Source: an uncultured Chlorobiaceae bacterium
GTDB taxonomy: Bacteria; Bacteroidota; Chlorobiia; Chlorobiales; Chlorobiaceae
Reading direction: 5' to 3'
Length of the DNA: 64,000 bases
Assembly: GCA_903851385.1 (NCBI GenBank)
Contig: CAINOC010000036.1
Coordinates: 13,273 to 77,272, forward strand
Part shown: one piece after another, positions 1 through 53,382 of the stretch
Position numbering within the stretch: position 1 is the stretch's first letter
Layout of the letters: every line of letters starts with the position of its first letter
Notes under the pieces: generated by a model
Databases searched by the model: none
The model's input: only the letters and a program-made list of their open reading frames with translations
Told to the model about the DNA's origin: nothing
Program-made: the position numbers and the translations under genes

Positions 1-13
1 ACCAAGGGCAACT

Positions 14-133
14 GTAGGCAGTAGGCAAAAATGTAAGTTACAGCAAAATTCCAACTTCCACCACTATTGATATTACTGCTGACTGCCCCACTGGAAACTG
101 CTAACTATTTCCAGTCAGCACTCAGTCCTCAGT
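14..133. repeat. 7-nt-period degenerate repeat module (GTAGGCA x2; ACTGCYN-type units; CAGYMCT units)
   Basis: GTAGGCAGTAGGCA at 14-27; ACTGCTG-ACTGCCC-C-ACTGGAA-ACTGCTA-ACT at 75-106; CAGCACT-CAGTCCT-CAGT at 116-133. Confidence 0.7.
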
Positions 134-234
134 ACATAAAAAGCCTACGAGCCTCAATAGACACCAAAAGACAAAAAAATAATAACACCAAATCCCTATA
201 TTATCACTACAATCGGTGCATGCAGATTTGCGAC

Positions 235-283
235 ACTGCCCACAGCCTACTCAAGACTGCCAACTGATTTCAACCTCAGCACT
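235..283. repeat. 7-nt-period repeat arm abutting the first start codon
   Basis: ACTGCCC-ACAGCCT-ACTCAAG-ACTGCCA-ACTGATT in register at 235-269, then CTCAGCACT at 275-283 directly before ATG 284. Confidence 0.7.
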
Positions 284-820
284 ATGTTTAAAACTCTAGC
301 CATCTTCCTAACAATACAGTTCCTGTTGTTCGTTACCCCTGCGTCCTCATATTCAGCTGAACCAAGCAAATTACAGGATACTTCACCTAGCTTCAAAGGT
401 GTTATCGGTCCAAGCTACCCCCTGGTTCAGGACTCCTACTTCACCGATGACTTTGGCAACATTCTCATGACCATCAACGTTCTTGGTCAGGCCAACCATC
501 AAGGTCAGGTCATTGTACAGGAAGACGCCGACCTTGCTACCCTTATCACTACGGTAGGTGGTATAAGCCCCTATGCGAACCCGAAAAAAATCATAGTCAT
601 CCGCAAATATCCCGACCCGGATGGCACACAATTCTATAAAGTAAACCTTAAAAAATTCTTAAAAAACGGTGACCGTTCATCATTCGTTGTCCTTAAACCG
701 AACGACACAGTCATCATCCCCGAAGATAATGGGATCTCTCTGGCAACCATCTCCTCGGTAATATCTCTCTTCTCAAATGGAATCAGCACTTACTACATTT
801 TAAAGCAGCTCGGCAAGTAA
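284..820 (+). CDS. SLBB-domain polysaccharide export protein (short, Wza/OPX-like)
   Basis: Signal peptide; SLBB-like segment INVLGQANHQG...GGISPYAN...IIVIR...LKPNDTVIIP; C-terminal hydrophobic helix; directly upstream of wzc. Confidence 0.75.
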   Translation: MFKTLAIFLTIQFLLFVTPASSYSAEPSKLQDTSPSFKGVIGPSYPLVQDSYFTDDFGNILMTINVLGQANHQGQVIVQEDADLATLITTVGGISPYANPKKIIVIRKYPDPDGTQFYKVNLKKFLKNGDRSSFVVLKPNDTVIIPEDNGISLATISSVISLFSNGISTYYILKQLGK

Positions 821-848
821 CAGGGTAAAACAAACCACGTAGACCATC

Positions 849-3269
849 ATGCCCGATACCCAGACCTCTGGTACCGACAAAAAACTGAATAAGGCCTCTA
901 AACCTACTCTCAATAAGGGCCACCTGCAGCCAAACATTCAGGAGTACTTCGTTGAGCCCATCAAGGAACTCGACATTGAAGAAGTTCTCAATGTCATCAA
1001 CCGTCGCAAATTCGGCATCGTTTTTTTTCTAATCATTTCCGTCGCTGTCGCTTGGCTTTTACATAAGGCCGAAGTTCCCGACTATTATGCGGAATCTATA
1101 ATTCTGATAGACAATCCATTCGGAAATAACCCCGTTGATGCAGCCCTTGGCACCACAGGTGAGTCCGATGCCAAAGCGGTTAAAAAAGACGTAGAGCTTT
1201 TAACCTCAATGCCCATTACCCAGATCGCCGTTCGCGAACTCCTTAAAACCACTAAACGCGACTCGCTCGAATTCTTCGGTAAAAGACAATACCGATCATC
1301 GCTCGACGACATCCTTATTTTGATGTCACCCTTTTCTGACAAACGGTCAGCGCAAACCATTAACCTCAATGGACCTCTATATCCCGATCAATTTATTCGG
1401 ATAATGGCTATGAAGTTCAGCAATCGTATAAAGGTTGACCCGGTGCGCGAAACCAGTCTCATCAAAGTCTCCGTTCGAAGCCCTTTTCAGGATGAAGCCG
1501 TCTATCTGACCAACACCCTGTGCGCGGCTTACAAAAACGCTGACATTTCACGTAAGTCTGAAAAATACAAGCAGTCAAGCGCATTTATTGCAGAAATGCT
1601 CCAAAACCAGCAGAAATTCGTTGCCCAAACCGATAGTCTCCTATCCAGATATATGGAGACCAACAAAATGTATGAGAATTCTGGCAATGTTGGCCAACTT
1701 CTCTCAAAAGTCACCGAAATCGATTCCAAAGTTAACGACCTCAAGACAGAAAGCCGTATAACTCAAAACAGCCTTGACTTTCTCCAGTCAAAACTCTCTG
1801 AGGCCGACCGGATCCTCAGTACACGCATAGCCAAAACCGTAAACGCCAAGCTCTCTGCCATTCTCGAGGATATTAAAGATCAGCAAAAACAATACGTAAA
1901 GCTTATTGCCGAAAAAGGTATCGATGACGCCGATACCAGAAACAAAAAGCAGCAGCTCGATGCCGCACAAGCCCGTTATGAAAACTTGAGCCGCAGCCAG
2001 ATAGCAGGCGAAATCAACTACACTGGACGCACAAAAAAATACAGCTTTGACCTCATCGCCGAAAAACTCGAGACAGAGCGGAAATTCAATCTCCTCAATA
2101 ACAGTGCCATTGAATACGAAAAGCTTAAAAACAGCTACGAAGCCAAGGTCAACCTTCTTCCTAAAAAGCAGCAGGACTACGCCAAACTTCAGCGCGACCG
2201 AGACGTGGCAGGTAAAACCTACACATTCCTCAAAGAAAAGCTTGATGAAAGTCGTATCCTGCTTGGTTCGGAGGTTGGTAACGTCTCCATCATCGGCAGC
2301 GCTTTTCGCCCTTTTTTCCCGGCAAATTCCAGTCCACTTAAAAATCTGCTTATCGGTCTGCTTGTTGGCGGACTGCTCGCATTCATCTACACTCTACTTA
2401 GTGAATATCTGGACGACAGTATTCAGGACGCAACCTTTTTAAAAAACCAGGGCTTCACCATTCTTACACAAATTCCTTTCGTTACAGACATTTACAATGG
2501 TTCGAAGGCAATCACTGATACAAACACAAAAAATGCAGATAATCCCGGCACTGATACATTTTCTTCTGTTCCTTTAATCACGGACCGCCTTTCCTCCTGG
2601 TATGCCGAAAGCTTTCGTACCCTTCGAACCGCCATCAGTTACTACAGCATAGACAACCCCTTACATTCTATTATTATCACAGGTGTTTCAGCCGCCGAAG
2701 GCAAATCCTCCGTTTGTGCAAACCTTGGTATAGCCCTTGCCCTCAATGGCCGAAGAACTATCATTATTGACTGCGATCTCCGCCTTGCATCCCAGCATAA
2801 AATCTTTAAAATAAAACGGGAGAATGGTCTCAGCGACTACCTCTATTCCGACCTTAAAATTATCGATGACAGTTATATTAAGCCTACCCATGTCACGAAC
2901 CTGAGTGTTATTACAGCGGGTAAAAAAATTCCAAATCCCAACGAGTTCCTCTCATCACAAAAAATGCAGGAGCTTATCTTACATCTTGAGACAAAATTTG
3001 ATATAGTCCTTATTGATAGCCCTCCGCTTTTCCTCAGCGACGCAGCCCAGCTAGCCCAAACCGTCGATGGCATACTGATCACTTCAAGGGTGAACTACAC
3101 TCCACGCAAACCTATTAAAGATCTTGCTGATGACCATTTAATCTCCTCAAATATCATTGGAGTTGCTCTTATTGGCTCCCCCAAGAATACCTATGGCTAT
3201 GGCTACGGCAAATACAGTCAACACAAATATGGTTATGGCAATAGGGGCAGTTATTATGGAAAAGAATAA
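849..3269 (+). CDS. wzc: Polysaccharide co-polymerase / BY-type tyrosine kinase (Wzc/GumC family)
   Basis: Two TM helices flanking a coiled-coil region; Walker A EGKSS, A' IIIDCDLR, B VLIDSPP; Tyr-rich tail YGYGYGKY...YGYG...YY. Confidence 0.93.
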   Translation: MPDTQTSGTDKKLNKASKPTLNKGHLQPNIQEYFVEPIKELDIEEVLNVINRRKFGIVFFLIISVAVAWLLHKAEVPDYYAESIILIDNPFGNNPVDAALGTTGESDAKAVKKDVELLTSMPITQIAVRELLKTTKRDSLEFFGKRQYRSSLDDILILMSPFSDKRSAQTINLNGPLYPDQFIRIMAMKFSNRIKVDPVRETSLIKVSVRSPFQDEAVYLTNTLCAAYKNADISRKSEKYKQSSAFIAEMLQNQQKFVAQTDSLLSRYMETNKMYENSGNVGQLLSKVTEIDSKVNDLKTESRITQNSLDFLQSKLSEADRILSTRIAKTVNAKLSAILEDIKDQQKQYVKLIAEKGIDDADTRNKKQQLDAAQARYENLSRSQIAGEINYTGRTKKYSFDLIAEKLETERKFNLLNNSAIEYEKLKNSYEAKVNLLPKKQQDYAKLQRDRDVAGKTYTFLKEKLDESRILLGSEVGNVSIIGSAFRPFFPANSSPLKNLLIGLLVGGLLAFIYTLLSEYLDDSIQDATFLKNQGFTILTQIPFVTDIYNGSKAITDTNTKNADNPGTDTFSSVPLITDRLSSWYAESFRTLRTAISYYSIDNPLHSIIITGVSAAEGKSSVCANLGIALALNGRRTIIIDCDLRLASQHKIFKIKRENGLSDYLYSDLKIIDDSYIKPTHVTNLSVITAGKKIPNPNEFLSSQKMQELILHLETKFDIVLIDSPPLFLSDAAQLAQTVDGILITSRVNYTPRKPIKDLADDHLISSNIIGVALIGSPKNTYGYGYGKYSQHKYGYGNRGSYYGKE

Positions 3270-5226
3270 TTTCCTAAAAAGTATAAAGAGTCTGCTTCAA
3301 GGCCAAAAGAAGGTTTTGGCGTTTTTTTTTGACATTACGGCATCTCTATTCAGTGTCTGGGTGGCCATCTCGTTCCGGTACGATTGTGTTCGTCTTCCTG
3401 AACGTCAAGAGTGGATAGTCTACCTTCTCGCCCCTTTACTTATGTTGCCAATTTTTATTACCAAAGGTCTTTACCGTGCAATCTACCGCTATCATGGTCT
3501 TGACGCTTTCATCACCATCCTGAAAGCAGTATTTATTTATGCTTTTTGTTTGATTGTGGTGCTTTTATTTCTCCATATCCCAGGTATTCCCCGATCGATT
3601 GTCTTCCTGCAGCCAATCATTATTCTCCTTATAACATTATTCAGCAGGGCTTGTATTGGCTACTGGTTTTCGTTAAAGAACAACAAAAGAAATAACAAAA
3701 ATATCACCTCACCCCCTGAACAAGTATTAATCTATGGGGCCTGTTTATCAGGCGTACAGCTGCAAAATGTCATCTCCAGCCACCCCAATTTCGACTTTGC
3801 CGGCTTCATTGACGATGACACCTCTCTCTCTGGCCGCACAATCAACGGTCACATGGTCTATAGCCCAAGCGAAGCGTTGCCGCTCATTCAACGCCATAAC
3901 ATCAAAAATATTTTTCTGGCCAGTCCCAGAATTACTCGTTTTAGAAGGCTGGAGATTGTCGAATACTTTAAGAACTATCACGTAAATCTTCGCTTCCTGC
4001 CAAACATTAAGGACCTCACCGAAGGCAAAGTCACCTTCTCCGAAATTAAAAAAATAGATATTGAAGACCTCCTTGGCCGCGACACTATGCCACTCAGCGA
4101 CCCGTTAACGATAAACACCATAAGCGGCAAAGTCATTATGGTAACCGGTGCAGGGGGTAGTATTGGGAGTGAACTTTCCCTGCAGATTCTTGCCCTCCAA
4201 CCCACCAAACTGCTTCTTGTTGATAATGCCGAATACAGCCTCTTTAATCTCCACAACCGCCTGATTGAGTTAAAGGTTAAAAATAATTTTAGCACACTCA
4301 TCGTACCACTCCTTGCTGACATTACAAATGAGGATCACATCTCGAATATCATTCGCATCTACCAGCCATCTATCATTTACCATGCTGCAGCCTACAAGCA
4401 TGTCCCGATGGTTGAATACAATATTTCTGAAGGTGTCCGCAACAACGTTCTCGGCACCCTCAGTATTGCCAAAGCCGTTCGTCAGCATAGAACACCAGCC
4501 CTGATACTAGTTAGCAGCGATAAAGCAGTCCGTCCAACTAACGTCATGGGCGCCAGCAAGCGCCTCTGCGAACTCATACTCCAAGCATTCTCCGCTGAAC
4601 CAGGAAACACAACCAGCATAAGTATGGTTCGATTCGGGAACGTTCTCGGCAGCAGTGGTTCCGTCGTTCCACTCTTTCGTACTCAAATCAGCCATGGAGG
4701 ACCAATCACCATTACCCATAAAGAGATTACTCGTTACTTCATGACTATCCCCGAAGCAGCCCAGCTCGTTATCCATGCTGGCAGCATGGGCAATGGAGGT
4801 GATGTCTACCTGCTTGATATGGGCGAACCTGTTAAAATCATCGACTTGGCCCATCGTATGGTCACTCTCTCAGGTCTTTCGGTTCGCGACCAAAACACAC
4901 CAGACGGTGATATCGAAATTAAAGTCATTGGCCTGCGTCCCGGCGAAAAACTCTACGAAGAACTGCTTATAGGCAACAATCCGTCTCCCACAGCCCACCC
5001 CCGAATCTTTAAGGCTAACGACCACTTCATACCCTGGTCTATACTTGAGCCAGAACTCAACAACCTTATGCACTACATCAAAACCGACAACATAAAAGGC
5101 ATAAAGCAAATACTGAAAAAACTTATTCCCGAATACAAACCTAGCCTTGCCATTACCGACCACTTACAAAGCGAAGCCGAAAGCACAACTAAAAAAATAC
5201 CCATAACCCCCCACCAGAAAAACTAG
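3256..5226 (+). CDS. Membrane-anchored UDP-GlcNAc 4,6-dehydratase (CapD/PglF/WbpM family)
   Basis: 4 N-terminal TM helices; TGAGGSIGSEL, HAAAYKHVP, SSDKAV, VRFGNVLGSSGSV, GLRPGEKLYEEL. ATG 3256 preferred over the ORF-track start, which lies inside wzc. Confidence 0.93.
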   Translation: MEKNNFLKSIKSLLQGQKKVLAFFFDITASLFSVWVAISFRYDCVRLPERQEWIVYLLAPLLMLPIFITKGLYRAIYRYHGLDAFITILKAVFIYAFCLIVVLLFLHIPGIPRSIVFLQPIIILLITLFSRACIGYWFSLKNNKRNNKNITSPPEQVLIYGACLSGVQLQNVISSHPNFDFAGFIDDDTSLSGRTINGHMVYSPSEALPLIQRHNIKNIFLASPRITRFRRLEIVEYFKNYHVNLRFLPNIKDLTEGKVTFSEIKKIDIEDLLGRDTMPLSDPLTINTISGKVIMVTGAGGSIGSELSLQILALQPTKLLLVDNAEYSLFNLHNRLIELKVKNNFSTLIVPLLADITNEDHISNIIRIYQPSIIYHAAAYKHVPMVEYNISEGVRNNVLGTLSIAKAVRQHRTPALILVSSDKAVRPTNVMGASKRLCELILQAFSAEPGNTTSISMVRFGNVLGSSGSVVPLFRTQISHGGPITITHKEITRYFMTIPEAAQLVIHAGSMGNGGDVYLLDMGEPVKIIDLAHRMVTLSGLSVRDQNTPDGDIEIKVIGLRPGEKLYEELLIGNNPSPTAHPRIFKANDHFIPWSILEPELNNLMHYIKTDNIKGIKQILKKLIPEYKPSLAITDHLQSEAESTTKKIPITPHQKN

Positions 5227-5238
5227 AAAGAAAGTAAA

Positions 5239-5495
5239 GTGCTGAGTATCGAGTGAACAGCCAAGAGAGTAATCAGTCAGCAGTAGGCAGTCTTAATTAC
5301 ACGCTGTCATCAATCTCTGCACTCATCACTAAGAAAGTTGCCAACTGCCAACTTTTCTTCATTTCACTCATCACACATCGCCTTACGTAGGCTGGGGTGA
5401 TTCCTGAACCCCAACAAAACAAAAGTTATCTCTCTTGATTTCAGAAATGATCGCGAACTGCCGACTGTCATTTCTCTTGTTTTCAACTGCCAACT
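5239..5495. repeat. 7-nt-period repeat module with nested complementary arms
   Basis: Purine-rich arms GTGCTGAGT...GAGTGA (5239-5256) and CAGTCAG-CAGTAGG-CAGT (5274-5291); roughly complementary arms CACTCATCAC (5320-5329, 5365-5374), TGCCAAC x2 (5339-5352), ACTGCCG-ACTGTCA (5457-5470), AACTGCCAACT (5485-5495). Confidence 0.75.
5387..5415 (+). repeat. GTAG-family REP-like palindrome
   Basis: GTAG followed by the hairpin GCTGGGGT-gattcctga-ACCCCAAC (7 of 8 stem pairs). Confidence 0.55.
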
Positions 5496-5506
5496 ATCTT
5501 TCTTCC

Positions 5507-7288
5507 ATGATTTTCCCTCTCCTCTTCCGTCTCTGGTTCCATATGTCAAAAAGGCGTAGAAAGCAAATATTCCTTCTCTTGATCTTAATGTTCGCAGCCT
5601 CATTCGCCGAAATCCTAAGCATAGGAGCCGTCCTCCCATTTCTCGCAGTCCTTACAAACCCCGACCGCATATTCCAGCTTCCATCAGCAAAACCATTCAT
5701 CAACCTTATAGGAATCACCTTTTCAAGTCAGCTCTTGCTCCCGCTCACCATCGGGTTTGGAGTAGCCGCCTTCATATCCGGAGCAATGCGTCTCCTCCTC
5801 CTCTGGGCCAGCACACGCATCTCCTATGCAACAGGGGCTGACCTCAGTATCAGCATCTACCGCCGAACTCTCTACCAGCCTTATTCAATACATGTATCCC
5901 GCAACAGCAGTGAAGTTATAAACGGTATCTCAGGTAAAGCGAGTAGCGTCATTGGGGCAATAATATTGCCATCTTTGACGATCATCAGTTCGGCCATTAT
6001 GTTAATTGTAATCCTAATGGCTCTGGTGTCAATAGATCCGGTAATCGCTTTGGTGGCTTTTGGAGGATTTGGCTTGATATACGCCATCATTATCCGCCTT
6101 ACCCGAGGCAGGATGTTAATTAATAGTCAAAGCATTGCCCGTGAATCAACACAGCTCATCAAATCATTACAGGAAGGGTTGGGTGGTATACGCGATGTTC
6201 TTATTGACGGCTGCCAGACAGTATATTGCGAAATCTACCGCAACGCAGATCTCCCTTTGCGCCGGGCCCAGGGCAATAGCAATTTTATCAGTCAAAGTCC
6301 ACGCTTTGGCATCGAAGCTCTCGGAATGATGCTCATCGCAGCCTTGGCATATCTCCTTGCCCACCAGCCCGATGGAGTAGCTAAAGCGATTCCGGTTCTT
6401 GGGGCTCTGGCCCTTGGCGCTCAGCGTTTGTTACCAGTACTCCAGGGCTCGTATGCGTCATGGTCCAGCATTCAAAGCGGACAAGTCTCTTTGAAAGACA
6501 CCCTCGAACTGCTCGACCAACCACTACCCGAATATGTCGACCAGCCACCCGCGAAACCCATCCCATTTCACCAGCAACTCACCCTTAAACAACTCTCATT
6601 TCGCTATACGCCCCAAACGCCATGGGTACTCAAGAACCTTGATCTTACAATTAAAAAGGGCAGTCGTATTGGCTTCATAGGTCTTACCGGCAGCGGTAAA
6701 AGCACCCTGCTCGATGTCATTATGGGATTGCTCCAGCCAAACGAGGGAACCGTTGAAATCGATAATCAAATAATCACAATACACAATACCCGCCAGTGGC
6801 AGGCCCATATCGCTCATGTACCCCAAGCCATCTTTTTAGCCGACAGCACCATCCAGGAAAACATAGCCTTTGGAGTACCAATAAATAAAATTGACCTGAC
6901 CCTCGTAAAACAAGCCGCTGAGAAGGCTCAAATTGCAGATATCATCGAAACCTGGCCCAAAAAATACAACACCTTCGTAGGCGAACGCGGCATCCGCCTC
7001 TCCGGCGGTCAACGCCAACGCATAGGTATAGCAAGGGCCCTTTACAAACAAGCCGACGTAATAATCTTCGACGAAGCCACCAGCGCCCTTGATAATAAAA
7101 CCGAAGCAGCAGTAATGCAATCCATAGAATCTCTAGGCAAAGACCTGACCCTACTGATCATAGCACATAGATTAACCACCCTGCAGAATTGTGATCAGAT
7201 AATAGAATTAGCTAACGGAGGGATAAAACGAATAGGAACATATCAAGAAATAGTTGGAGAGCAAAACATTATCACCAGCGACTCTTAG
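5507..7288 (+). CDS. ABC-type lipid-linked oligosaccharide flippase (PglK/WlaB/HepA-like TMD-NBD half transporter)
   Basis: Multi-TM N-half; Walker A GLTGSGKST, signature LSGGQRQR, Walker B IIFDEATSALD, H-loop IIAHRL. Confidence 0.9.
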   Translation: MIFPLLFRLWFHMSKRRRKQIFLLLILMFAASFAEILSIGAVLPFLAVLTNPDRIFQLPSAKPFINLIGITFSSQLLLPLTIGFGVAAFISGAMRLLLLWASTRISYATGADLSISIYRRTLYQPYSIHVSRNSSEVINGISGKASSVIGAIILPSLTIISSAIMLIVILMALVSIDPVIALVAFGGFGLIYAIIIRLTRGRMLINSQSIARESTQLIKSLQEGLGGIRDVLIDGCQTVYCEIYRNADLPLRRAQGNSNFISQSPRFGIEALGMMLIAALAYLLAHQPDGVAKAIPVLGALALGAQRLLPVLQGSYASWSSIQSGQVSLKDTLELLDQPLPEYVDQPPAKPIPFHQQLTLKQLSFRYTPQTPWVLKNLDLTIKKGSRIGFIGLTGSGKSTLLDVIMGLLQPNEGTVEIDNQIITIHNTRQWQAHIAHVPQAIFLADSTIQENIAFGVPINKIDLTLVKQAAEKAQIADIIETWPKKYNTFVGERGIRLSGGQRQRIGIARALYKQADVIIFDEATSALDNKTEAAVMQSIESLGKDLTLLIIAHRLTTLQNCDQIIELANGGIKRIGTYQEIVGEQNIITSDS

Positions 7289-7321
7289 CATTTTGAATAT
7301 CCACCCAATTTTTTAATCAGT

Positions 7322-8029
7322 ATGTTTTTAAATAATCACCCGGTTTTTGCGCTTGTGCCAGCTCGAGGAGGATCAAAAGGGATCCCAAGAAAAAATATGT
7401 CCGATTTACAGGGTAGTCCTTTAATTGCATACACATTACGAGCCGCGTTTGCAGCAAAAATGATTGATAATGTTTGGGTCTCTTCAGATGATACGGAGAT
7501 TTTATCATTTGCACTGTCATTAGGTGCCCTTGTTATTGAAAGACCTTCAGAATTTGCCACTGATGATGCCTCGGCGGTTGATGTTGTAATGCATTTTCTA
7601 TCGGCACTTCCAAATAATCTTCGCACTCAAGATCCATTAATTGTTTATTTACAGCCAACATCTCCACTGCGTACAGCAAAACATATTGATAGTGCACTAG
7701 AGTTACTCATTGATAAGATGGAGAGTTGCTTGGTAAGTGTAGTCGCCTTGAGTAAATCGCTTTACAAATCATTCGGATTGGATTCCAATGGAAAGTTACA
7801 ATCTCTTTTTGATGAGAGGCTGTCAAATGAACGACGTCAGGATTTACCACTAATGTATATCCCAAATGGGGCAATCTATATATTTAAGGCTTCTGATTTT
7901 GACAAACGTAATGGGTTTCCATCGAATGGAAGTATTCCATTTATTATGCCTGAGCTTGAAAGTATAGATATTGATACTCCTGAAGACTTTGTAAAAGTTG
8001 AAAAACTATTAAAAGAAAATCATGGGTGA
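7322..8029 (+). CDS. neuA: Acylneuraminate cytidylyltransferase (CMP-sialic acid synthetase)
   Basis: PARGGSKGIPRKN, LQPTSPLR, NGAIY, SIDIDTPEDF; first gene of the neuABC run. Confidence 0.92.
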   Translation: MFLNNHPVFALVPARGGSKGIPRKNMSDLQGSPLIAYTLRAAFAAKMIDNVWVSSDDTEILSFALSLGALVIERPSEFATDDASAVDVVMHFLSALPNNLRTQDPLIVYLQPTSPLRTAKHIDSALELLIDKMESCLVSVVALSKSLYKSFGLDSNGKLQSLFDERLSNERRQDLPLMYIPNGAIYIFKASDFDKRNGFPSNGSIPFIMPELESIDIDTPEDFVKVEKLLKENHG

Positions 8030-47152: not shown

Positions 47153-48012
47153 GCCTCAAACCACAGTCTTCATGGCTATCTTGGTTCCTGTTTGTTGCTG
47201 TTTTGCTGCATTCGGTAGTTAAGTACTCTTTCTCGCCTGAGATTCAAGGTGACTTGTTGTTGTTGTACCCGACACTCTTAGCGGTTTTATGGATGGAGCG
47301 CAATAGCATATTCGAAACCTTTCGCAGCAGTGCCTTAGGTCATCCTGTGTTGGGATTTGTGCTTTTTATAGTAGGATCTTTTTTCGCTGTAGCTGGTGGG
47401 GTGGCGCCTTCATTAGTTGCTGAAGTTTTAGGGTTGTTTTTTATTGCTGCAGGATTTGTTGCATCTTTCGCTCCTTCCAATTATCTTCGTTCATCATTAT
47501 TCATTGCTTTTGCTGGTATTGTTATAGTGATCCTTGGCTCTATTGGCCCTTCGCTCTTATCGTCCGAACTGGCCGTTACGTTAGCTGCACTTTCAGCCAA
47601 AGTACTCAGCGCTACAATTCTGCCTGTTGTCGCAAACGGAGTCACCCTCTATTTTGGTCAATATAGTGCCACTGTGACCAAAGACTGTTCAGGGATGAAT
47701 TCCATTTTTTCATTGACAGCACTTTCTATTCTTTACCTCCGTGAGGGAGTGAATCGTAAACCATGGCATATTGCCTTGATGGTCGCAAGTATCATTCCAG
47801 TGGCGGTGCTTACCAATTTTATGAGAGTGATGCTTGTGGTACTTGCCACTTGGTACGTGGGTGATTGGTTTGCCCAGAGCATTTTCCATGAGACCATTGG
47901 TGTTGTAGCTTTTGTCCTGGCACTTCTGCTCCTGACATTTATCGATAGGTTATTGCTTTTTGCAAACTCTCTTGTAAAGCCTAATGATGGGAGCACTCAT
48001 GCGCCTGACTAA
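47149..48012 (+). CDS. Exosortase (EpsH family)
   Basis: About 8 TM helices; catalytic triad motifs DCSGMNS (Cys), TNFMRV (Arg), FHETIG (His). Confidence 0.9.
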   Translation: MSLKPQSSWLSWFLFVAVLLHSVVKYSFSPEIQGDLLLLYPTLLAVLWMERNSIFETFRSSALGHPVLGFVLFIVGSFFAVAGGVAPSLVAEVLGLFFIAAGFVASFAPSNYLRSSLFIAFAGIVIVILGSIGPSLLSSELAVTLAALSAKVLSATILPVVANGVTLYFGQYSATVTKDCSGMNSIFSLTALSILYLREGVNRKPWHIALMVASIIPVAVLTNFMRVMLVVLATWYVGDWFAQSIFHETIGVVAFVLALLLLTFIDRLLLFANSLVKPNDGSTHAPD

Positions 48013-48661
48013 ATACTCCCTTCTTGCTATAGTCTTTAGCCTTATCCTCATTTCATCTGAGATATTGGTTCAAATTAGGCAGCAACCTTTTAAGGGGGCA
48101 AAACCTGACTTGCAAAGCATCATAACGCAGCACCCCCAAGGCTGGGAGTCTATACCTGGTTCATCTGTAGATCCCAGTACAAACACTCCATACGATCTGG
48201 TTGCAACTCAAATCTATAAACGTGCTGATGGCAAAGAAGCCTCTATCGTTATGACTTGGAGCTTCGACGGCTTCCACCGGGCAGGGCACGCTCAGGAAGT
48301 GTGCTATAACTCACAAGGCTTTACTGTCTCAACCCCTCGGAATAGCTCAGTGATGGTAGGAGCTCAAAAGCTTGATGTCGTTACATTTGAAGGTCGCTAT
48401 GGCGATATGACTGAAGACGTCATCTATTGGAGAGTCACCGGCGGAATACACGACGCAACACTCCAGGAAAACATCCCCATGACACAGCGATTTAAAGAAG
48501 TCCCCCGAATCCTTATCGGTGATATTCCCAGCAACCTGATGGTCCGTGTATCCACCTGGCGCCCTGCCACCGACCCACCATCCACCGTCCACATCGACTA
48601 CATCAAATCCTACCTCCAATCCGTCTCACCCAACACCCGCCACTTCCTCACCGGTCTCTAA
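47999..48661 (+). CDS. epsI: EpsI-family exosortase-associated protein
   Basis: N-terminal TM; Y...QIYKR.DG, HAQEVCYNSQGF, VIYW, LMVRVST; overlaps the exosortase 3' end. Confidence 0.8.
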   Translation: MRLTKYSLLAIVFSLILISSEILVQIRQQPFKGAKPDLQSIITQHPQGWESIPGSSVDPSTNTPYDLVATQIYKRADGKEASIVMTWSFDGFHRAGHAQEVCYNSQGFTVSTPRNSSVMVGAQKLDVVTFEGRYGDMTEDVIYWRVTGGIHDATLQENIPMTQRFKEVPRILIGDIPSNLMVRVSTWRPATDPPSTVHIDYIKSYLQSVSPNTRHFLTGL

Positions 48662-48872: not shown

Positions 48873-48953
48873 CAGTCAGCATCAAATCCTGACTTTTTTT
48901 CATTATTAACTCAGTATTTTAAACTGCCGATTGCCCACTGTCAACTGCTAACT
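48873..48953. repeat. 7-nt-period repeat arm at the right edge of the polysaccharide locus
   Basis: CAGTCAGCA at 48873-48881; ACTGCCG-ATTGCCC-ACTGTCA-ACTGCTA-ACT at 48923-48953, ending 9 nt before ATG 48963. Confidence 0.75.
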
Positions 48954-50239: not shown

Positions 50240-51553
50240 ATGCGGGAATTAATGCCGGAAAGCAATAGAGCTGTTGGTCTTGATATAGGAACAACCAGGG
50301 TATCCATTGTGGTTGCTGAAAAAGATGAATTCGGCAAACTTAAAGTTATCGCTACAGGCTCTTCCCATTCAGATGGCCTCCGGAGAGCAACGGTTGTAAA
50401 TATCAACAAGACATTTGCCGCTATTAAAACCGCTGTTGCCGATGTAGAACGTGAGGCCTCTCTGGTGATTCACGGCGTCAATGTTGCCCTCTCAGGAGCG
50501 CATGTCCATTGTATGCAAAGTAGTTCCGAAATCAGTATCAACCAGACTAGTATTGTAAATGAGTCGGATGTACATCGGTTTCTGGAAAAGGCGATGGTCA
50601 ATATCCAGAATCTTGATGTCAATCATGAAGTGATTCATGTCATTCCACAGGAATTTATTGTTGACGATCAAGACAGGCTTCTTGATCCCATAGGTATGTC
50701 CGGAACTACCATGAGAGGCACCGTCTATATTGTGGTTGGCTTGAAAACCAGGATCCGCAATATCCGGCAGTGCGTTGAGAGAGCAGGCCTTAAGATAGGT
50801 GCACTTACCTTTAAGTCCGTTGCGTTGGGTATTGCTGTGATAAAAGAGCGTGAGAAGAAAGGTGGTGTCCTGGTTATTGATATCGGGGGAGGTACCACTG
50901 AAGTTGCGGTCTTCATTCGAGGTGCTATTCATTATTCCGAAGTGATCAACGTTGCAGCCAATGACATTACCCATGATATTGCCCATGGAGTGAAGGTCCA
51001 TGATGAGGTTGCTGAGGAGCTGAAAATTCAGTATGGCTATTCAGATACTCGATTGAGCAGAAAGGATGAGGATATTGTGATAAAAGACGGTGAGGGTCAT
51101 TCGCAAAAAACATTTCCCAGGAGTTCGCTGACTATGATTATTGAGGCTAGAATGATGGAAATCTTTGAGCTTGTTCGTGACGCAGTCATGGTCTCGGGCT
51201 ATTATGAAGAAATTAATGCTGGTGTCATTCTTACAGGTGGAGGTGCGCTGTTGCTGGGAGTGGTAGAGCTTGCTCGGCTTGTTTTTGGTCTTGACGTCCG
51301 TATCGGTTATCCGGAAGCAGTTTCAGCCGGTATCCAAGGTACTCTTTATGGCCCCATGGACGCTACGGTAATGGGTCTTGTGGCTCATGTTTATGAAAGC
51401 AATTACTCAGGGGATCATAGTTTCGCTACGGAAAGAGATGCGCCTGAGAAACTTCCCCCTGAACCGGTTGATGATATTCTTGTTGTGCAGGAACCCTGTG
51501 TCGCATGGAAAAAAGTTGTTGATGGACTTCAGGACTGGTGGGCAAAGCTATGA
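50240..51553 (+). CDS. ftsA: FtsA-like actin-fold protein (outside the dcw cluster)
   Basis: VGLDIGTT, HVIPQEFIVD, IDIGGGTT, DITHDIA, AEELK, VILTGGGA, C-terminal amphipathic helix WKKVVDGLQDWWAKL; start may be 50252. Confidence 0.85.
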   Translation: MRELMPESNRAVGLDIGTTRVSIVVAEKDEFGKLKVIATGSSHSDGLRRATVVNINKTFAAIKTAVADVEREASLVIHGVNVALSGAHVHCMQSSSEISINQTSIVNESDVHRFLEKAMVNIQNLDVNHEVIHVIPQEFIVDDQDRLLDPIGMSGTTMRGTVYIVVGLKTRIRNIRQCVERAGLKIGALTFKSVALGIAVIKEREKKGGVLVIDIGGGTTEVAVFIRGAIHYSEVINVAANDITHDIAHGVKVHDEVAEELKIQYGYSDTRLSRKDEDIVIKDGEGHSQKTFPRSSLTMIIEARMMEIFELVRDAVMVSGYYEEINAGVILTGGGALLLGVVELARLVFGLDVRIGYPEAVSAGIQGTLYGPMDATVMGLVAHVYESNYSGDHSFATERDAPEKLPPEPVDDILVVQEPCVAWKKVVDGLQDWWAKL

Positions 51554-53382
51554 AATCCATTACAGATTCAGATCTGTTTGATACTCTTCGAAAAGTGTTT
51601 GGGTTTCGTGAATTTCGCCCCAATCAGGAGCAGATAGTAAGAGCCATCCTTGAAAACAGGGATGTTTTTGCCGTTATGCCCACTGGTGGTGGTAAATCCC
51701 TCTGCCACCAGCTTCCTGCTGTTCTCCTTCCAGGTACCTGCATGGTCATCAGCCCGCTTATCTCACTGATGAAAGACCAAGTTGATGGAGCAAGGGCAAA
51801 CGGTATCCGGGCAGCGTTCCTCAACAGCTCTCTTGACCCCGAGGAGCGCGACGCTGTGATGCAGCAGCTTCTCTCAAACTCTCTTGACCTGCTCTATGTC
51901 GCCCCGGAACGGTTTGCCCTCGAAGCGTTCAAAAAAATGCTTGGCCGGGTGAACATCAGTATGGCCGTCATCGACGAGGTTCACTGTATTTCAGAGTGGG
52001 GTCACGATTTCCGGCCCGACTACCTCTCGCTTTCCTCTCTGGTAACCATGTTTCCCGATCTCCCTGTAGCCGCATTTACAGCTACAGCGACTCACCTTGT
52101 GCAGCAGAACATCCTCGATAAACTCGCACTTCGTAATCCTCTCATTGTCAGGGCCTCCTTTGACCGTCCGAATCTCTCCTACGATGTCCGGTTAAAAGAT
52201 AAAGTTGACGCCCAGCTTGTTGCACTTCTTAAGAAGAGCACAGGGAAAGCCGGTATAATCTACCGTACAAGCCGCAAAAGTGTTCATGAAACAGCAGAAA
52301 TGCTTAAGGGAAAAGGGTTTCGAGCCCTCCCTTATCACGCAGGTCTCAGTGATCATGATCGTAAACGCAATCAGGAAGCATTTATTCGCGATGAAGTGGA
52401 CGTTATTGTAGCCACCATCGCCTTCGGAATGGGTATTGACAAGTCCAATATCCGTTTCGTCATTCATGCCGACTTCCCCAAAAGTATTGAAAATTACTAT
52501 CAGGAAACCGGCAGGGCAGGACGCGATGGTGAAGCCGCACATTGTACCCTTCTTTTCTCTCCGAGTGATATCAGCAAACTGCGCTTCTTTATTGACACAA
52601 TGACGGACGAAACTGAACGCAAAAGGGCGCTTGATGCTCTTTCGAAAGTGATTTCCTTTGCCTCAACTTCAATCTGCCGTCGTCGAAGCCTGCTTGACTA
52701 TTTCGGAGAACACTACCCGCATGATAACTGCAGCTCCTGCGACATCTGTCTAGGTACCCGCGAACGGGTTGATTGCACCCGTGATGCCCAGATGCTCCTT
52801 TCAGCCATTGTCCGCACCGAAGAGAGGTTTGGAGCAATGCATATTGTCGATATCGTTCTAGGAAGCAATACCCAGAAAATCCGTGATTTTGGTCATGATC
52901 GATTGAAAACCTATGGAATCGGAAAAGGATGCAGTAAAAAATACTGGCGACAGCTCGTCGATGAGCTTCTCGCGCAAAAAGTTATCGAAAAATCAGATGG
53001 GCCCTTCCCGGCGCTCTTGCTTTTGCCGAAAGCTGTCAAGATTCTTAAGAATGAAGAGAGGGTTGAAATCGTAAAGGTCGTAGAAAAAATAAAGGCAAAG
53101 GAACAAAACAGAACTCTTGAGGCCACAGAAACACCGTATGATCAGCAGCTTTTTGAACTACTGAGGGTTCTTCGCAAAGAGATCGCTCAAGAGCAGGGAA
53201 TACCACCATATATGGTTTTTTCAGACCCTTCTCTTCATCAGATGGCATCAATTTACCCTCGGAGCGCCGACACCATGGTGACGGTTACCGGTGTTGGTGA
53301 AGTCAAACTCCAGCGCTATGGCCGTCAGTTTCTCCGCCTCATCGCACGCTACTGCACCGACCACCCTGAGCGGGCAGCATAA
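51550..53382 (+). CDS. recQ: ATP-dependent DNA helicase RecQ
   Basis: MPTGGGKSLC, DEVHCISEWGHDFRP, ATIAFGMGIDK, YYQETGRAGRDG, Zn ligands CRR...C..CD.C, RQC and one HRDC domain. Confidence 0.95.
   Translation: MKSITDSDLFDTLRKVFGFREFRPNQEQIVRAILENRDVFAVMPTGGGKSLCHQLPAVLLPGTCMVISPLISLMKDQVDGARANGIRAAFLNSSLDPEERDAVMQQLLSNSLDLLYVAPERFALEAFKKMLGRVNISMAVIDEVHCISEWGHDFRPDYLSLSSLVTMFPDLPVAAFTATATHLVQQNILDKLALRNPLIVRASFDRPNLSYDVRLKDKVDAQLVALLKKSTGKAGIIYRTSRKSVHETAEMLKGKGFRALPYHAGLSDHDRKRNQEAFIRDEVDVIVATIAFGMGIDKSNIRFVIHADFPKSIENYYQETGRAGRDGEAAHCTLLFSPSDISKLRFFIDTMTDETERKRALDALSKVISFASTSICRRRSLLDYFGEHYPHDNCSSCDICLGTRERVDCTRDAQMLLSAIVRTEERFGAMHIVDIVLGSNTQKIRDFGHDRLKTYGIGKGCSKKYWRQLVDELLAQKVIEKSDGPFPALLLLPKAVKILKNEERVEIVKVVEKIKAKEQNRTLEATETPYDQQLFELLRVLRKEIAQEQGIPPYMVFSDPSLHQMASIYPRSADTMVTVTGVGEVKLQRYGRQFLRLIARYCTDHPERAA

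Follow-up and report, generated by a model that had tools for sequence, protein, structure and literature searches.

Why should the conserved export genes at one end of a polysaccharide locus carry so many A and C bases at their third codon positions, and does this excess point to a mechanism that diversifies the locus? The question arises in a 64,000-nt stretch of DNA from an uncultured Chlorobiaceae bacterium (the window; C36:13273-77272, where C36 is contig CAINOC010000036.1 of a 2.98-Mb genome in 120 contigs). The window opens with wza-, wzc- and capD-like genes and an ABC exporter gene, the final conserved gene of the flank, and continues with a variable low-GC sugar cassette. A preliminary description had placed the skew at gene ends near junctions and attributed it to deamination of conserved flanks that repeatedly become single-stranded as strand-invasion arms; together with neighbouring heptamer repeats, this would amount to a dedicated diversification system. 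Here, the whole flank is found to be skewed, and the explanation towards which we lean, at somewhat better than an even chance, is a strand asymmetry of replication type, reversed in polarity over the whole flank up to where the imported cassette starts.

Reversed strand skew of the conserved flank

On the plus strand, positions 1-7288 of the window have a raw GC skew of -0.14 to -0.29, which turns positive beyond. The plus-strand genes in this part include a wza-like polysaccharide export protein (284-820; SLBB domain, Pfam SLBB_2), with an A+C fraction at third codon positions (AC3) of 0.63 and a GC skew at third positions (GC3 skew) of -0.50, a wzc-like chain-length/tyrosine-kinase protein (849-3269; Pfam GNVR and AAA_31; AC3 0.58, GC3 skew -0.47), a capD-like nucleotide-sugar dehydratase/epimerase (3157-5226; Pfam Polysacc_synt_2, 5e-113; AC3 0.58), and the ABC exporter with its transmembrane and nucleotide-binding domains (5507-7288; Pfam ABC_membrane and ABC_tran; AC3 0.64-0.65). 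For capD, 3157 is the start of the listed open reading frame (ORF), and the real start is probably slightly downstream. Together, these four genes (284-7288) span AC3 values of 0.58-0.64 and GC3 skews of -0.41 to -0.50.

The skewed block reaches upstream to the start of C36 and thus measures at least 20.5 kb, at least 13 kb of it upstream of the window. All genes from the start of C36 to window position 7288 have AC3 values of 0.58-0.73 and GC3 skews of -0.34 to -0.62, apart from two low-GC inserts and the first gene of C36 (AC3 0.53, GC3 skew -0.17). AC3 peaks at 0.73, 8.5 kb away from the junction of ABC and cassette, and the skew is therefore not confined to gene ends near junctions, as had been proposed. 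The gene with this value is UDP-sugar dehydrogenase-like, a name given from its sequence and not via Pfam. Referenced to the strand, the GC3 skew of this left block of C36 is -0.37, the strongest in the genome; only contig C119 (+0.34) is comparable, and elsewhere the skew is coherent along long contigs at about 0.10-0.20. At the right-hand end, a junction of 33 bp (7289-7321) marks a flip in both GC content and skew polarity, with GC3 skew passing from -0.41 in ABC to +0.31 in the next gene and GC content at third positions (GC3) from 0.50 to 0.26. After 7322, every gene has a GC3 of 0.17-0.43 (genome mean 0.46), and the skew is mostly positive.

The mirror-image skews of genes in opposite orientation, both in C119 (where, two exceptions apart, AC3 is 0.20-0.38 for genes of one strand and 0.53-0.77 for those of the other) and in a related genome described below, indicate that the signal belongs to the DNA strand and not to the coding strand. 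The block itself contains a single gene on the minus strand, located upstream, with a skew of +0.20. Silent sites are hit most, and codon positions 1 and 2 are scarcely affected. Compared with the genome, C and A are higher and T and G lower on the plus strand of the block, shifts that fit T>C plus G>A, i.e., a deamination-type bias of the minus strand. The genes with extreme A/C windows are functionally unrelated and include a TolC-like protein, NuoN, a heptosyltransferase, Ndk, a TonB receptor, and a restriction subunit. Translational selection was ruled out by the mirror-image skew of C119 and by highly expressed genes, with an AC3 of 0.43 in EF-Tu and 0.31-0.54 in ribosomal proteins. The last 12 kb of C119 (40.9 kb) are syntenic to positions 403-415 kb of the related genome, where the skew is only weak, indicating that the amplitude of the skew is patchy and species-specific.

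The related genome (G058) is complete, and its skew was sampled every 150 kb. Its plus strand is G-rich over 0-1.4 Mb and C-rich over 1.55-3.0 Mb, an ordinary layout that, judged by skew, puts the predicted origin near 0 and the predicted terminus near 1.5 Mb. Within the positive replichore lies a reversed, negative domain of about 65 kb (approximately 448-513.8 kb) with GC3 skews of -0.23 to -0.28, which runs counter to the fork direction of its replichore and ends, again, at the ABC stop. Genes in both orientations carry the signal: between 472 and 513 kb, plus-strand genes are at about -0.28 and minus-strand genes at about +0.11. The domain holds genes that look housekeeping-like from their N-terminal sequences, and the strongest positive skew of G058 (+0.23 to +0.29, to 670 kb) follows directly beyond it. 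The flip at the 3' end of ABC is found in five related species (G058, G064, G068, G019, and G087), hence in six with the genome studied here, and in the more distant G089 and G075 the flank is nearly neutral.

In the explanation that we favour, the third-position A/C excess would be the coding-strand view of an asymmetry that makes the minus strand rich in G+T and the plus strand rich in A+C. Composition and the comparison with relatives indicate an asymmetry of replication type, produced by a strand-biased pressure for minus-strand C>T and A>G transitions. The switch would fall at the ABC stop because resident conserved DNA there meets a recently imported low-GC cassette. As the likeliest history, the flank may be oriented against the local forks, now or repeatedly, via segmental inversion or re-insertion, possibly tied to rearrangement at the cassette junction. 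Two smaller effects would lie atop this baseline, namely a modulation within the ABC gene and a one-sided A/C enrichment over approximately 300 bp 5' of CA-oriented repeat arrays, both of which are taken up in the next section.

Several observations weigh against this explanation. A lone inherited inversion should have ameliorated, and silent sites between the species are at the identity expected from composition, with the block still the most skewed. On its left, the G058 domain sets in gradually over 420-450 kb, in DNA that is colinear with contig C6 of the present genome, where the same trend is weaker, and no inverted repeats joining the two edges of the G058 domain were found, where an inversion would leave two sharp breakpoints. 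Regions of the present genome that are syntenic to the housekeeping-like part of the G058 domain are only weakly reversed. The block genes in the window are all on one strand, so that the evidence from both strands comes mainly from relatives. Finally, the U-shaped profile of ABC recurs convergently in lineages whose silent sites are saturated, for which the baseline model gives no account.

Local reversals of GC or AT skew have been read as inversions (Merrikh and Merrikh, 2018; PMC6220195), and this inversion reading has been criticized (Liu and Zhang, 2022; PMC9098844). The domain described here differs from inversion-type reversals in that it ends at one gene boundary in six species with saturated silent sites, has the largest amplitude in its genome rather than a decaying one, and has another edge that is gradual and colinear between species. 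A simple inversion fails to account for its persistence, its amplitude, and its gradual left edge.

Profile within the ABC gene and the heptamer arrays

The hand counts of A+C third bases from which the preliminary description had started (35/40, 17/40, and 32/40 along ABC, and 32/41 at the end of capD) were reproduced exactly on recounting. As background, we used non-overlapping 40-codon windows in 2,033 long ORFs of the genome (n=18,271), with a mean of 18.4 A+C third bases and a standard deviation of 3.95. Windows with at least 32 make up a 0.14% tail (25/18,271), and a sliding 40-codon window reaches 32 in 57 genes. The description of the skew as synonymous proved apt for both ABC peaks, where A+C at codon positions 1/2/3 is 0.55/0.47/0.88 and 0.47/0.60/0.80, but not for capD, whose low-complexity C-terminal tail (5101-5223, plus strand) is A/C-rich at every codon position (0.80/0.68/0.78). 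The capD "peak" is thus a compositional tail with no synonymous skew. When synonymous codons were shuffled within genes, heterogeneity was significant for ABC (P(var)=0.0002) and capD (0.0013); wzc, wza, neuA, and neuB had no significant within-gene heterogeneity.

The 5' peak of ABC (5588-5860) has 29-34 A+C per 40 third positions, positions 1 and 2 not being raised, in a segment with an amino-acid identity of 0.84-0.89 to orthologs. It is followed by a low-skew middle (5900-6480; 17-25/40) and by a 3' peak (6850-7140; up to 36/40) over the signature and Walker B region, all on the plus strand. The 5' peak thus covers the stretch from 80 to 350 bp into the gene, and the 3' peak that from 440 to 150 bp ahead of the stop; skew is lower in the final 150 bp, which adjoin the junction, than in the internal peak. 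In all ortholog groups, the peaks overlie the most conserved protein segments, and they are rich in ATA, GTA, and CTA codons. A general U-shaped A+C profile along genes was not found genome-wide.

An ABC ortholog is present in 56/121 Chlorobiaceae genomes, the nearest (87% amino-acid identity) in a Chlorobiaceae metagenome-assembled genome. The orthologs of 30 species range from 0.39 to 0.71 in AC3 and from +0.06 to -0.58 in GC3 skew, a width which indicates that the skew is lineage-specific and not intrinsic to the gene. We divided the orthologs by GC3 skew into groups H (< -0.4), M (-0.4 to -0.15), and L (> -0.15). The U-profile returns in all three, scaled with overall skew, and at the 3' peak the orthologs L022, L036, and L037 reach 0.88-0.95 A+C over 60 codons. 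Third-base identity of the 3' peak to group-M orthologs is 0.48, against 0.45 predicted from composition, so that the peak is convergent and not inherited; shared ancestry or gene conversion as its source was rejected on the same comparison. The middle of the gene has a different history. Its third-base identity to L022 and L023, the two closest relatives, is 0.68-0.70 where 0.37 is expected (z ~9), which shows recent common ancestry, and identity is much lower in the peaks.

The nearest relative thus switches along ABC, and the changes in skew within the gene could mark tracts acquired by recombination from donors that differ in strand history. Such mosaic inheritance would explain why the low-skew middle shares ancestry with L022/L023. 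It does not sit well with a U-shape in all three ortholog groups, nor with a 3' peak that is A/C-rich in group M at an identity hardly above that expected, and we consider it unlikely as the source of the profile.

Between the capD stop and the ABC start lies an intergenic module of heptamer repeats (5227-5506), with a GT-type copy, AAGTGCTGAGT, just after the capD stop and CA-type copies before the ABC start (TGCCAAC twice at 5339-5353, AACTGCCGACTG, and CAACTGCCAAC). The spacer is polar, its G-rich (GT-type) copy being next to the stop of capD and its G-poor (CA-type) copies next to the start of ABC. Modules of this kind are not markers of the locus. Tandem Repeats Finder (TRF) reports 367 period-7 arrays in the genome, 148 of them in four unit families (CAGCACT, AACTGCC, ACTGCCC, and ACTGCCG), i.e., approximately one per 20 kb, and the three in the 64-kb window are as many as expected. 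Among the 148 arrays, 25 lie inside ORFs of at least 150 aa and several at contig ends, and array orientation tracks the local strand skew. One array, CGACTGC x4 at C36:11119-11148, approximately 2.1 kb upstream of the window, lies within the UDP-sugar dehydrogenase-like ORF and is translated into a low-complexity insert (...RLPTADCRLPNE...). Independent assemblies of the same strain (L095 and L097) break at the module between capD and ABC, approximately 100 bp ahead of the ABC start, and several contigs of the present genome end in long arrays (C3:10-89 and C24:15-178); these arrays fragment short-read assemblies.

A link between third-position skew and distance to the heptamers had been proposed as a check and was borne out genome-wide, within approximately 300 bp. 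With all repeats masked and C36 excluded, AC3 on the CA strand 5' of arrays rises from a baseline of 0.51-0.53 to 0.56 at 300-200 bp, 0.60 at 200-100 bp, and 0.65 at 100-20 bp; the 3' side is nearly flat, and codon positions 1 and 2 change little. Four-fold sites near arrays stand at 0.653 versus 0.533 (P=7.5e-20). Other tandem repeats, used as controls, have no adjacent A/C effect, and the silent-site effect is therefore specific to the heptamer family. A stricter test within genes (ORFs of at least 250 aa with the array outside the ORF; proximal 30-270 bp against the rest of the gene) gave an excess of 0.081 for the proximal segment (P=0.0003). There was no dose-response between array copy number and adjacent skew and no correlation between array density and skew at the 15-kb scale, and since density is not predictive at that scale, the array-adjacent effect is separate and local. 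An isolated A/C3-rich gene farther along the window (47984-48661, plus strand; AC3 0.61, GC3 skew -0.43), 5' of a CA-type module at approximately 48873-48953, fits this genome-wide effect.

The repeats are not required for the profile of ABC. G058 is nearly without arrays (1 in 552 kb), yet it has the reversed domain and a stronger U-profile (0.66/0.36/0.73), which is the outcome that the preliminary description had itself named as contrary to a link between profile and repeats.

It is conceivable, if improbable, that the local peaks arise from selection on the transcript, either for C-rich, G-poor unstructured RNA (as in Rho-loading or repeat-associated 3' regions) or for codon choice at conserved residues. 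The excess next to arrays in the strict test comes from the 3' ends of co-oriented genes (+0.105, 17/18 positive), against +0.02 in seven anti-oriented genes; C gains most and G loses most; and the convergent ABC peaks coincide with the most conserved segments in every ortholog group. Selection of this kind is difficult to reconcile with highly expressed genes that have no A/C preference, with peaks whose ATA, GTA, and CTA codons are unlike optimal-codon usage, with arrays that trail gene 3' ends equally often in either orientation, and with a looser analysis in which anti-oriented genes are also affected.

The flank as recombination arm and the junction as a possible origin

The cassette starts with a neuA-like cytidylyltransferase gene (7322-8029, plus strand; Pfam CTP_transf_3; GC3 0.26, AC3 0.43), followed by NeuB, a 2-epimerase, and more sugar genes. 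The atypical GC3 of its genes, 0.17-0.43 against 0.46, and a gene content that differs between relatives are as expected of a horizontally acquired cassette. Nucleotide similarity to the nearest relative stops at the ABC stop codon, and the cassettes of relatives are dissimilar beyond it. Orphan 3' fragments of ABC (the last 140-180 codons) were found 8-21 kb downstream of full copies, or alone (L001:19338-19577, G073:C20:69031-69462, G015:C21:1622-2155, and G093:C206:254-727), and resemble traces left by tandem loci or by the insertion of cassettes. The composition break 33 bp past the stop, the mosaic identity of ABC, and these orphan fragments all point to the flank as a recombination arm, in agreement with that part of the preliminary description, and a mosaic flank gene together with its remnants is what cassette exchange via flanking homology would leave. 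Such an arm is ordinary for polysaccharide loci. The 593-aa ABC product from the ATG at 5507 matches the form recorded in public assemblies; this protein is encoded on three more public contigs, all of the same strain and with the same cassette, which differ by 1 single-nucleotide polymorphism in 2 kb.

At the far end of the locus, skew is intermediate (GC3 skew -0.24, AC3 0.51) in a second gene, at 51538-53382 (614 aa). It matches G058:502.9-504.7 kb, a member of a tandem pair just upstream of the G058 export genes, and its size suggests an ABC-type paralog.

Searches of the junction itself gave no tRNA and no Rfam match, and promoter and terminator scans gave matches at chance level only. 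The spacer is only 33-40 bp long across species, and its sequence is not conserved. No cluster of DnaA boxes, as expected of a bacterial replication origin, is present at the junction, where the motif TTWTNCACA does not occur; it occurs once in the 64 kb. Over the window as a whole (1-64000), the motif is depleted, at 1 against 8.6 +/- 2.8 in shuffles.

The persistence of the flip nevertheless allows a stronger interpretation, in which the junction is a conserved and actively maintained origin-like skew jump in a clade of Chlorobium species, marking a site where a polar, strand-asymmetric process departs outward each generation, and the arrays, if CA-oriented, in addition, impose a polar substitution gradient of approximately 300 bp on their 5' side. 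We give this combination a small chance of being right. A still slightly smaller chance goes to its mechanistic counterpart, that the junction of ABC and cassette launches a polar process outward both ways in most generations, as a secondary or recombination-dependent start, or restart, of replication. The switch from minus to plus does carry the sign of an origin. It has a sharp right edge and a gradual left return across DNA that is colinear between species, the amplitude in G058 is greatest beside the junction on both sides, and the flip has been kept in six species with mutually saturated silent sites. An initiation site is harder to see in a short, unconserved spacer with no DnaA-box cluster, in a window with a single TTWTNCACA instead of the 8.6 expected, and bacterial chromosomes normally have a single origin. 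Moreover, fork direction alone does not give an amplitude above the genome norm, and the syntenic housekeeping-like DNA of the present genome is only weakly reversed. In mammalian genomes, replication initiation zones appear as "upward jumps" of skew that delimit N-domains. The jump described here, abrupt from minus to plus and then decaying gradually with distance, resembles these, but the chromosome is bacterial and has its ordinary origin and terminus at other places, and there are no initiator-binding sites at the jump.

The proposal from which this work started, in which conserved flanks become single-stranded time and again while serving as strand-invasion arms, deamination writes the skew, and flanks and heptamers form a dedicated diversification system, now appears quite improbable. 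What stands of it is the direction of the base shifts and the flank as a recombination arm; in addition, arrays go with local A/C skew genome-wide, and silent sites of ABC have diverged further from the closest relatives in the peaks than in the middle of the gene. An arm-specific scar, in contrast, does not agree with a domain of 20-65 kb that takes in housekeeping-like genes on both strands, nor with the last 150 bp by the junction being less skewed than the internal peak, and the capD "peak" is not synonymous. By an order-of-magnitude estimate, the deamination dose that exposed single-stranded DNA receives per event, in recombination that is rare, would be smaller by orders of magnitude than what replication contributes in every generation. 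The dedicated system is not supported either, given that the arrays are spread genome-wide at the expected density and that G058, without them, keeps both domain and U-profile.

Chance or amino-acid composition, which could be suspected because the windows were picked by eye and the capD tail owes its A/C excess to composition at every codon position, is the least probable explanation and was rejected for ABC by the shuffles (P=0.0002), by a flat amino-acid expectation, and by windows that fall in the 0.14% tail of the genome.

Comparison with known systems and significance

Replication-associated asymmetry divides chromosomes into G+T-rich and A+C-rich strands, is strongest at silent sites, and is mirrored by gene orientation. 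The block resembles it in the contrast of G+T and A+C strands, in the emphasis on silent sites, and in the mirror images; what is opposed in the block is the direction of its own replichore. The exchange of cassettes via conserved flanks is familiar from the pneumococcal cps locus (dexB-aliA), the E. coli O-antigen locus (galF-gnd), and Klebsiella K loci. As in these capsule and O-antigen loci, a low-GC sugar cassette of variable content stands beside conserved export genes, the flank gene has a mosaic make-up, and pieces of it turn up on the far side of cassettes; unlike in them, the flank here also carries a reversed strand skew.

Short tandemly repeated repetitive (STRR) sequences are known from cyanobacteria. 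Heptanucleotide long simple sequence repeats (LSSR) are a known class whose function and origin are described as unexplained in the account of Mrazek et al. (2007) given in PMC4679880. The arrays described here are like these in being many, short, dispersed, and mostly intergenic, built from a few 7-nt units, lineage-specific, and oriented with strand skew; they differ from those described in their units (CAGCACT, AACTGCC, ACTGCCG, and ACTGCCC) and in their occurrence in a member of the Chlorobiaceae. Our literature searches returned no description of Chlorobium heptamer repeats or skew anomalies, nor of a one-sided A/C enrichment beside arrays.

If the replication-type asymmetry of the whole flank is the true explanation, the locus would be a clean case of polysaccharide-locus flanks with a compositional history unlike that of the cassettes exchanged between them, and it would caution against taking third-position skews at such junctions as a sign of special mutagenesis. 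A reversal that ends at one gene boundary in six species, with the highest amplitude in its genome, also tests the assumption that local reversals are the decaying scars of inversions. The one-sided silent-site bias beside heptanucleotide repeats, for its part, may turn out to be the first mechanistic handle on a widespread class of repeats.

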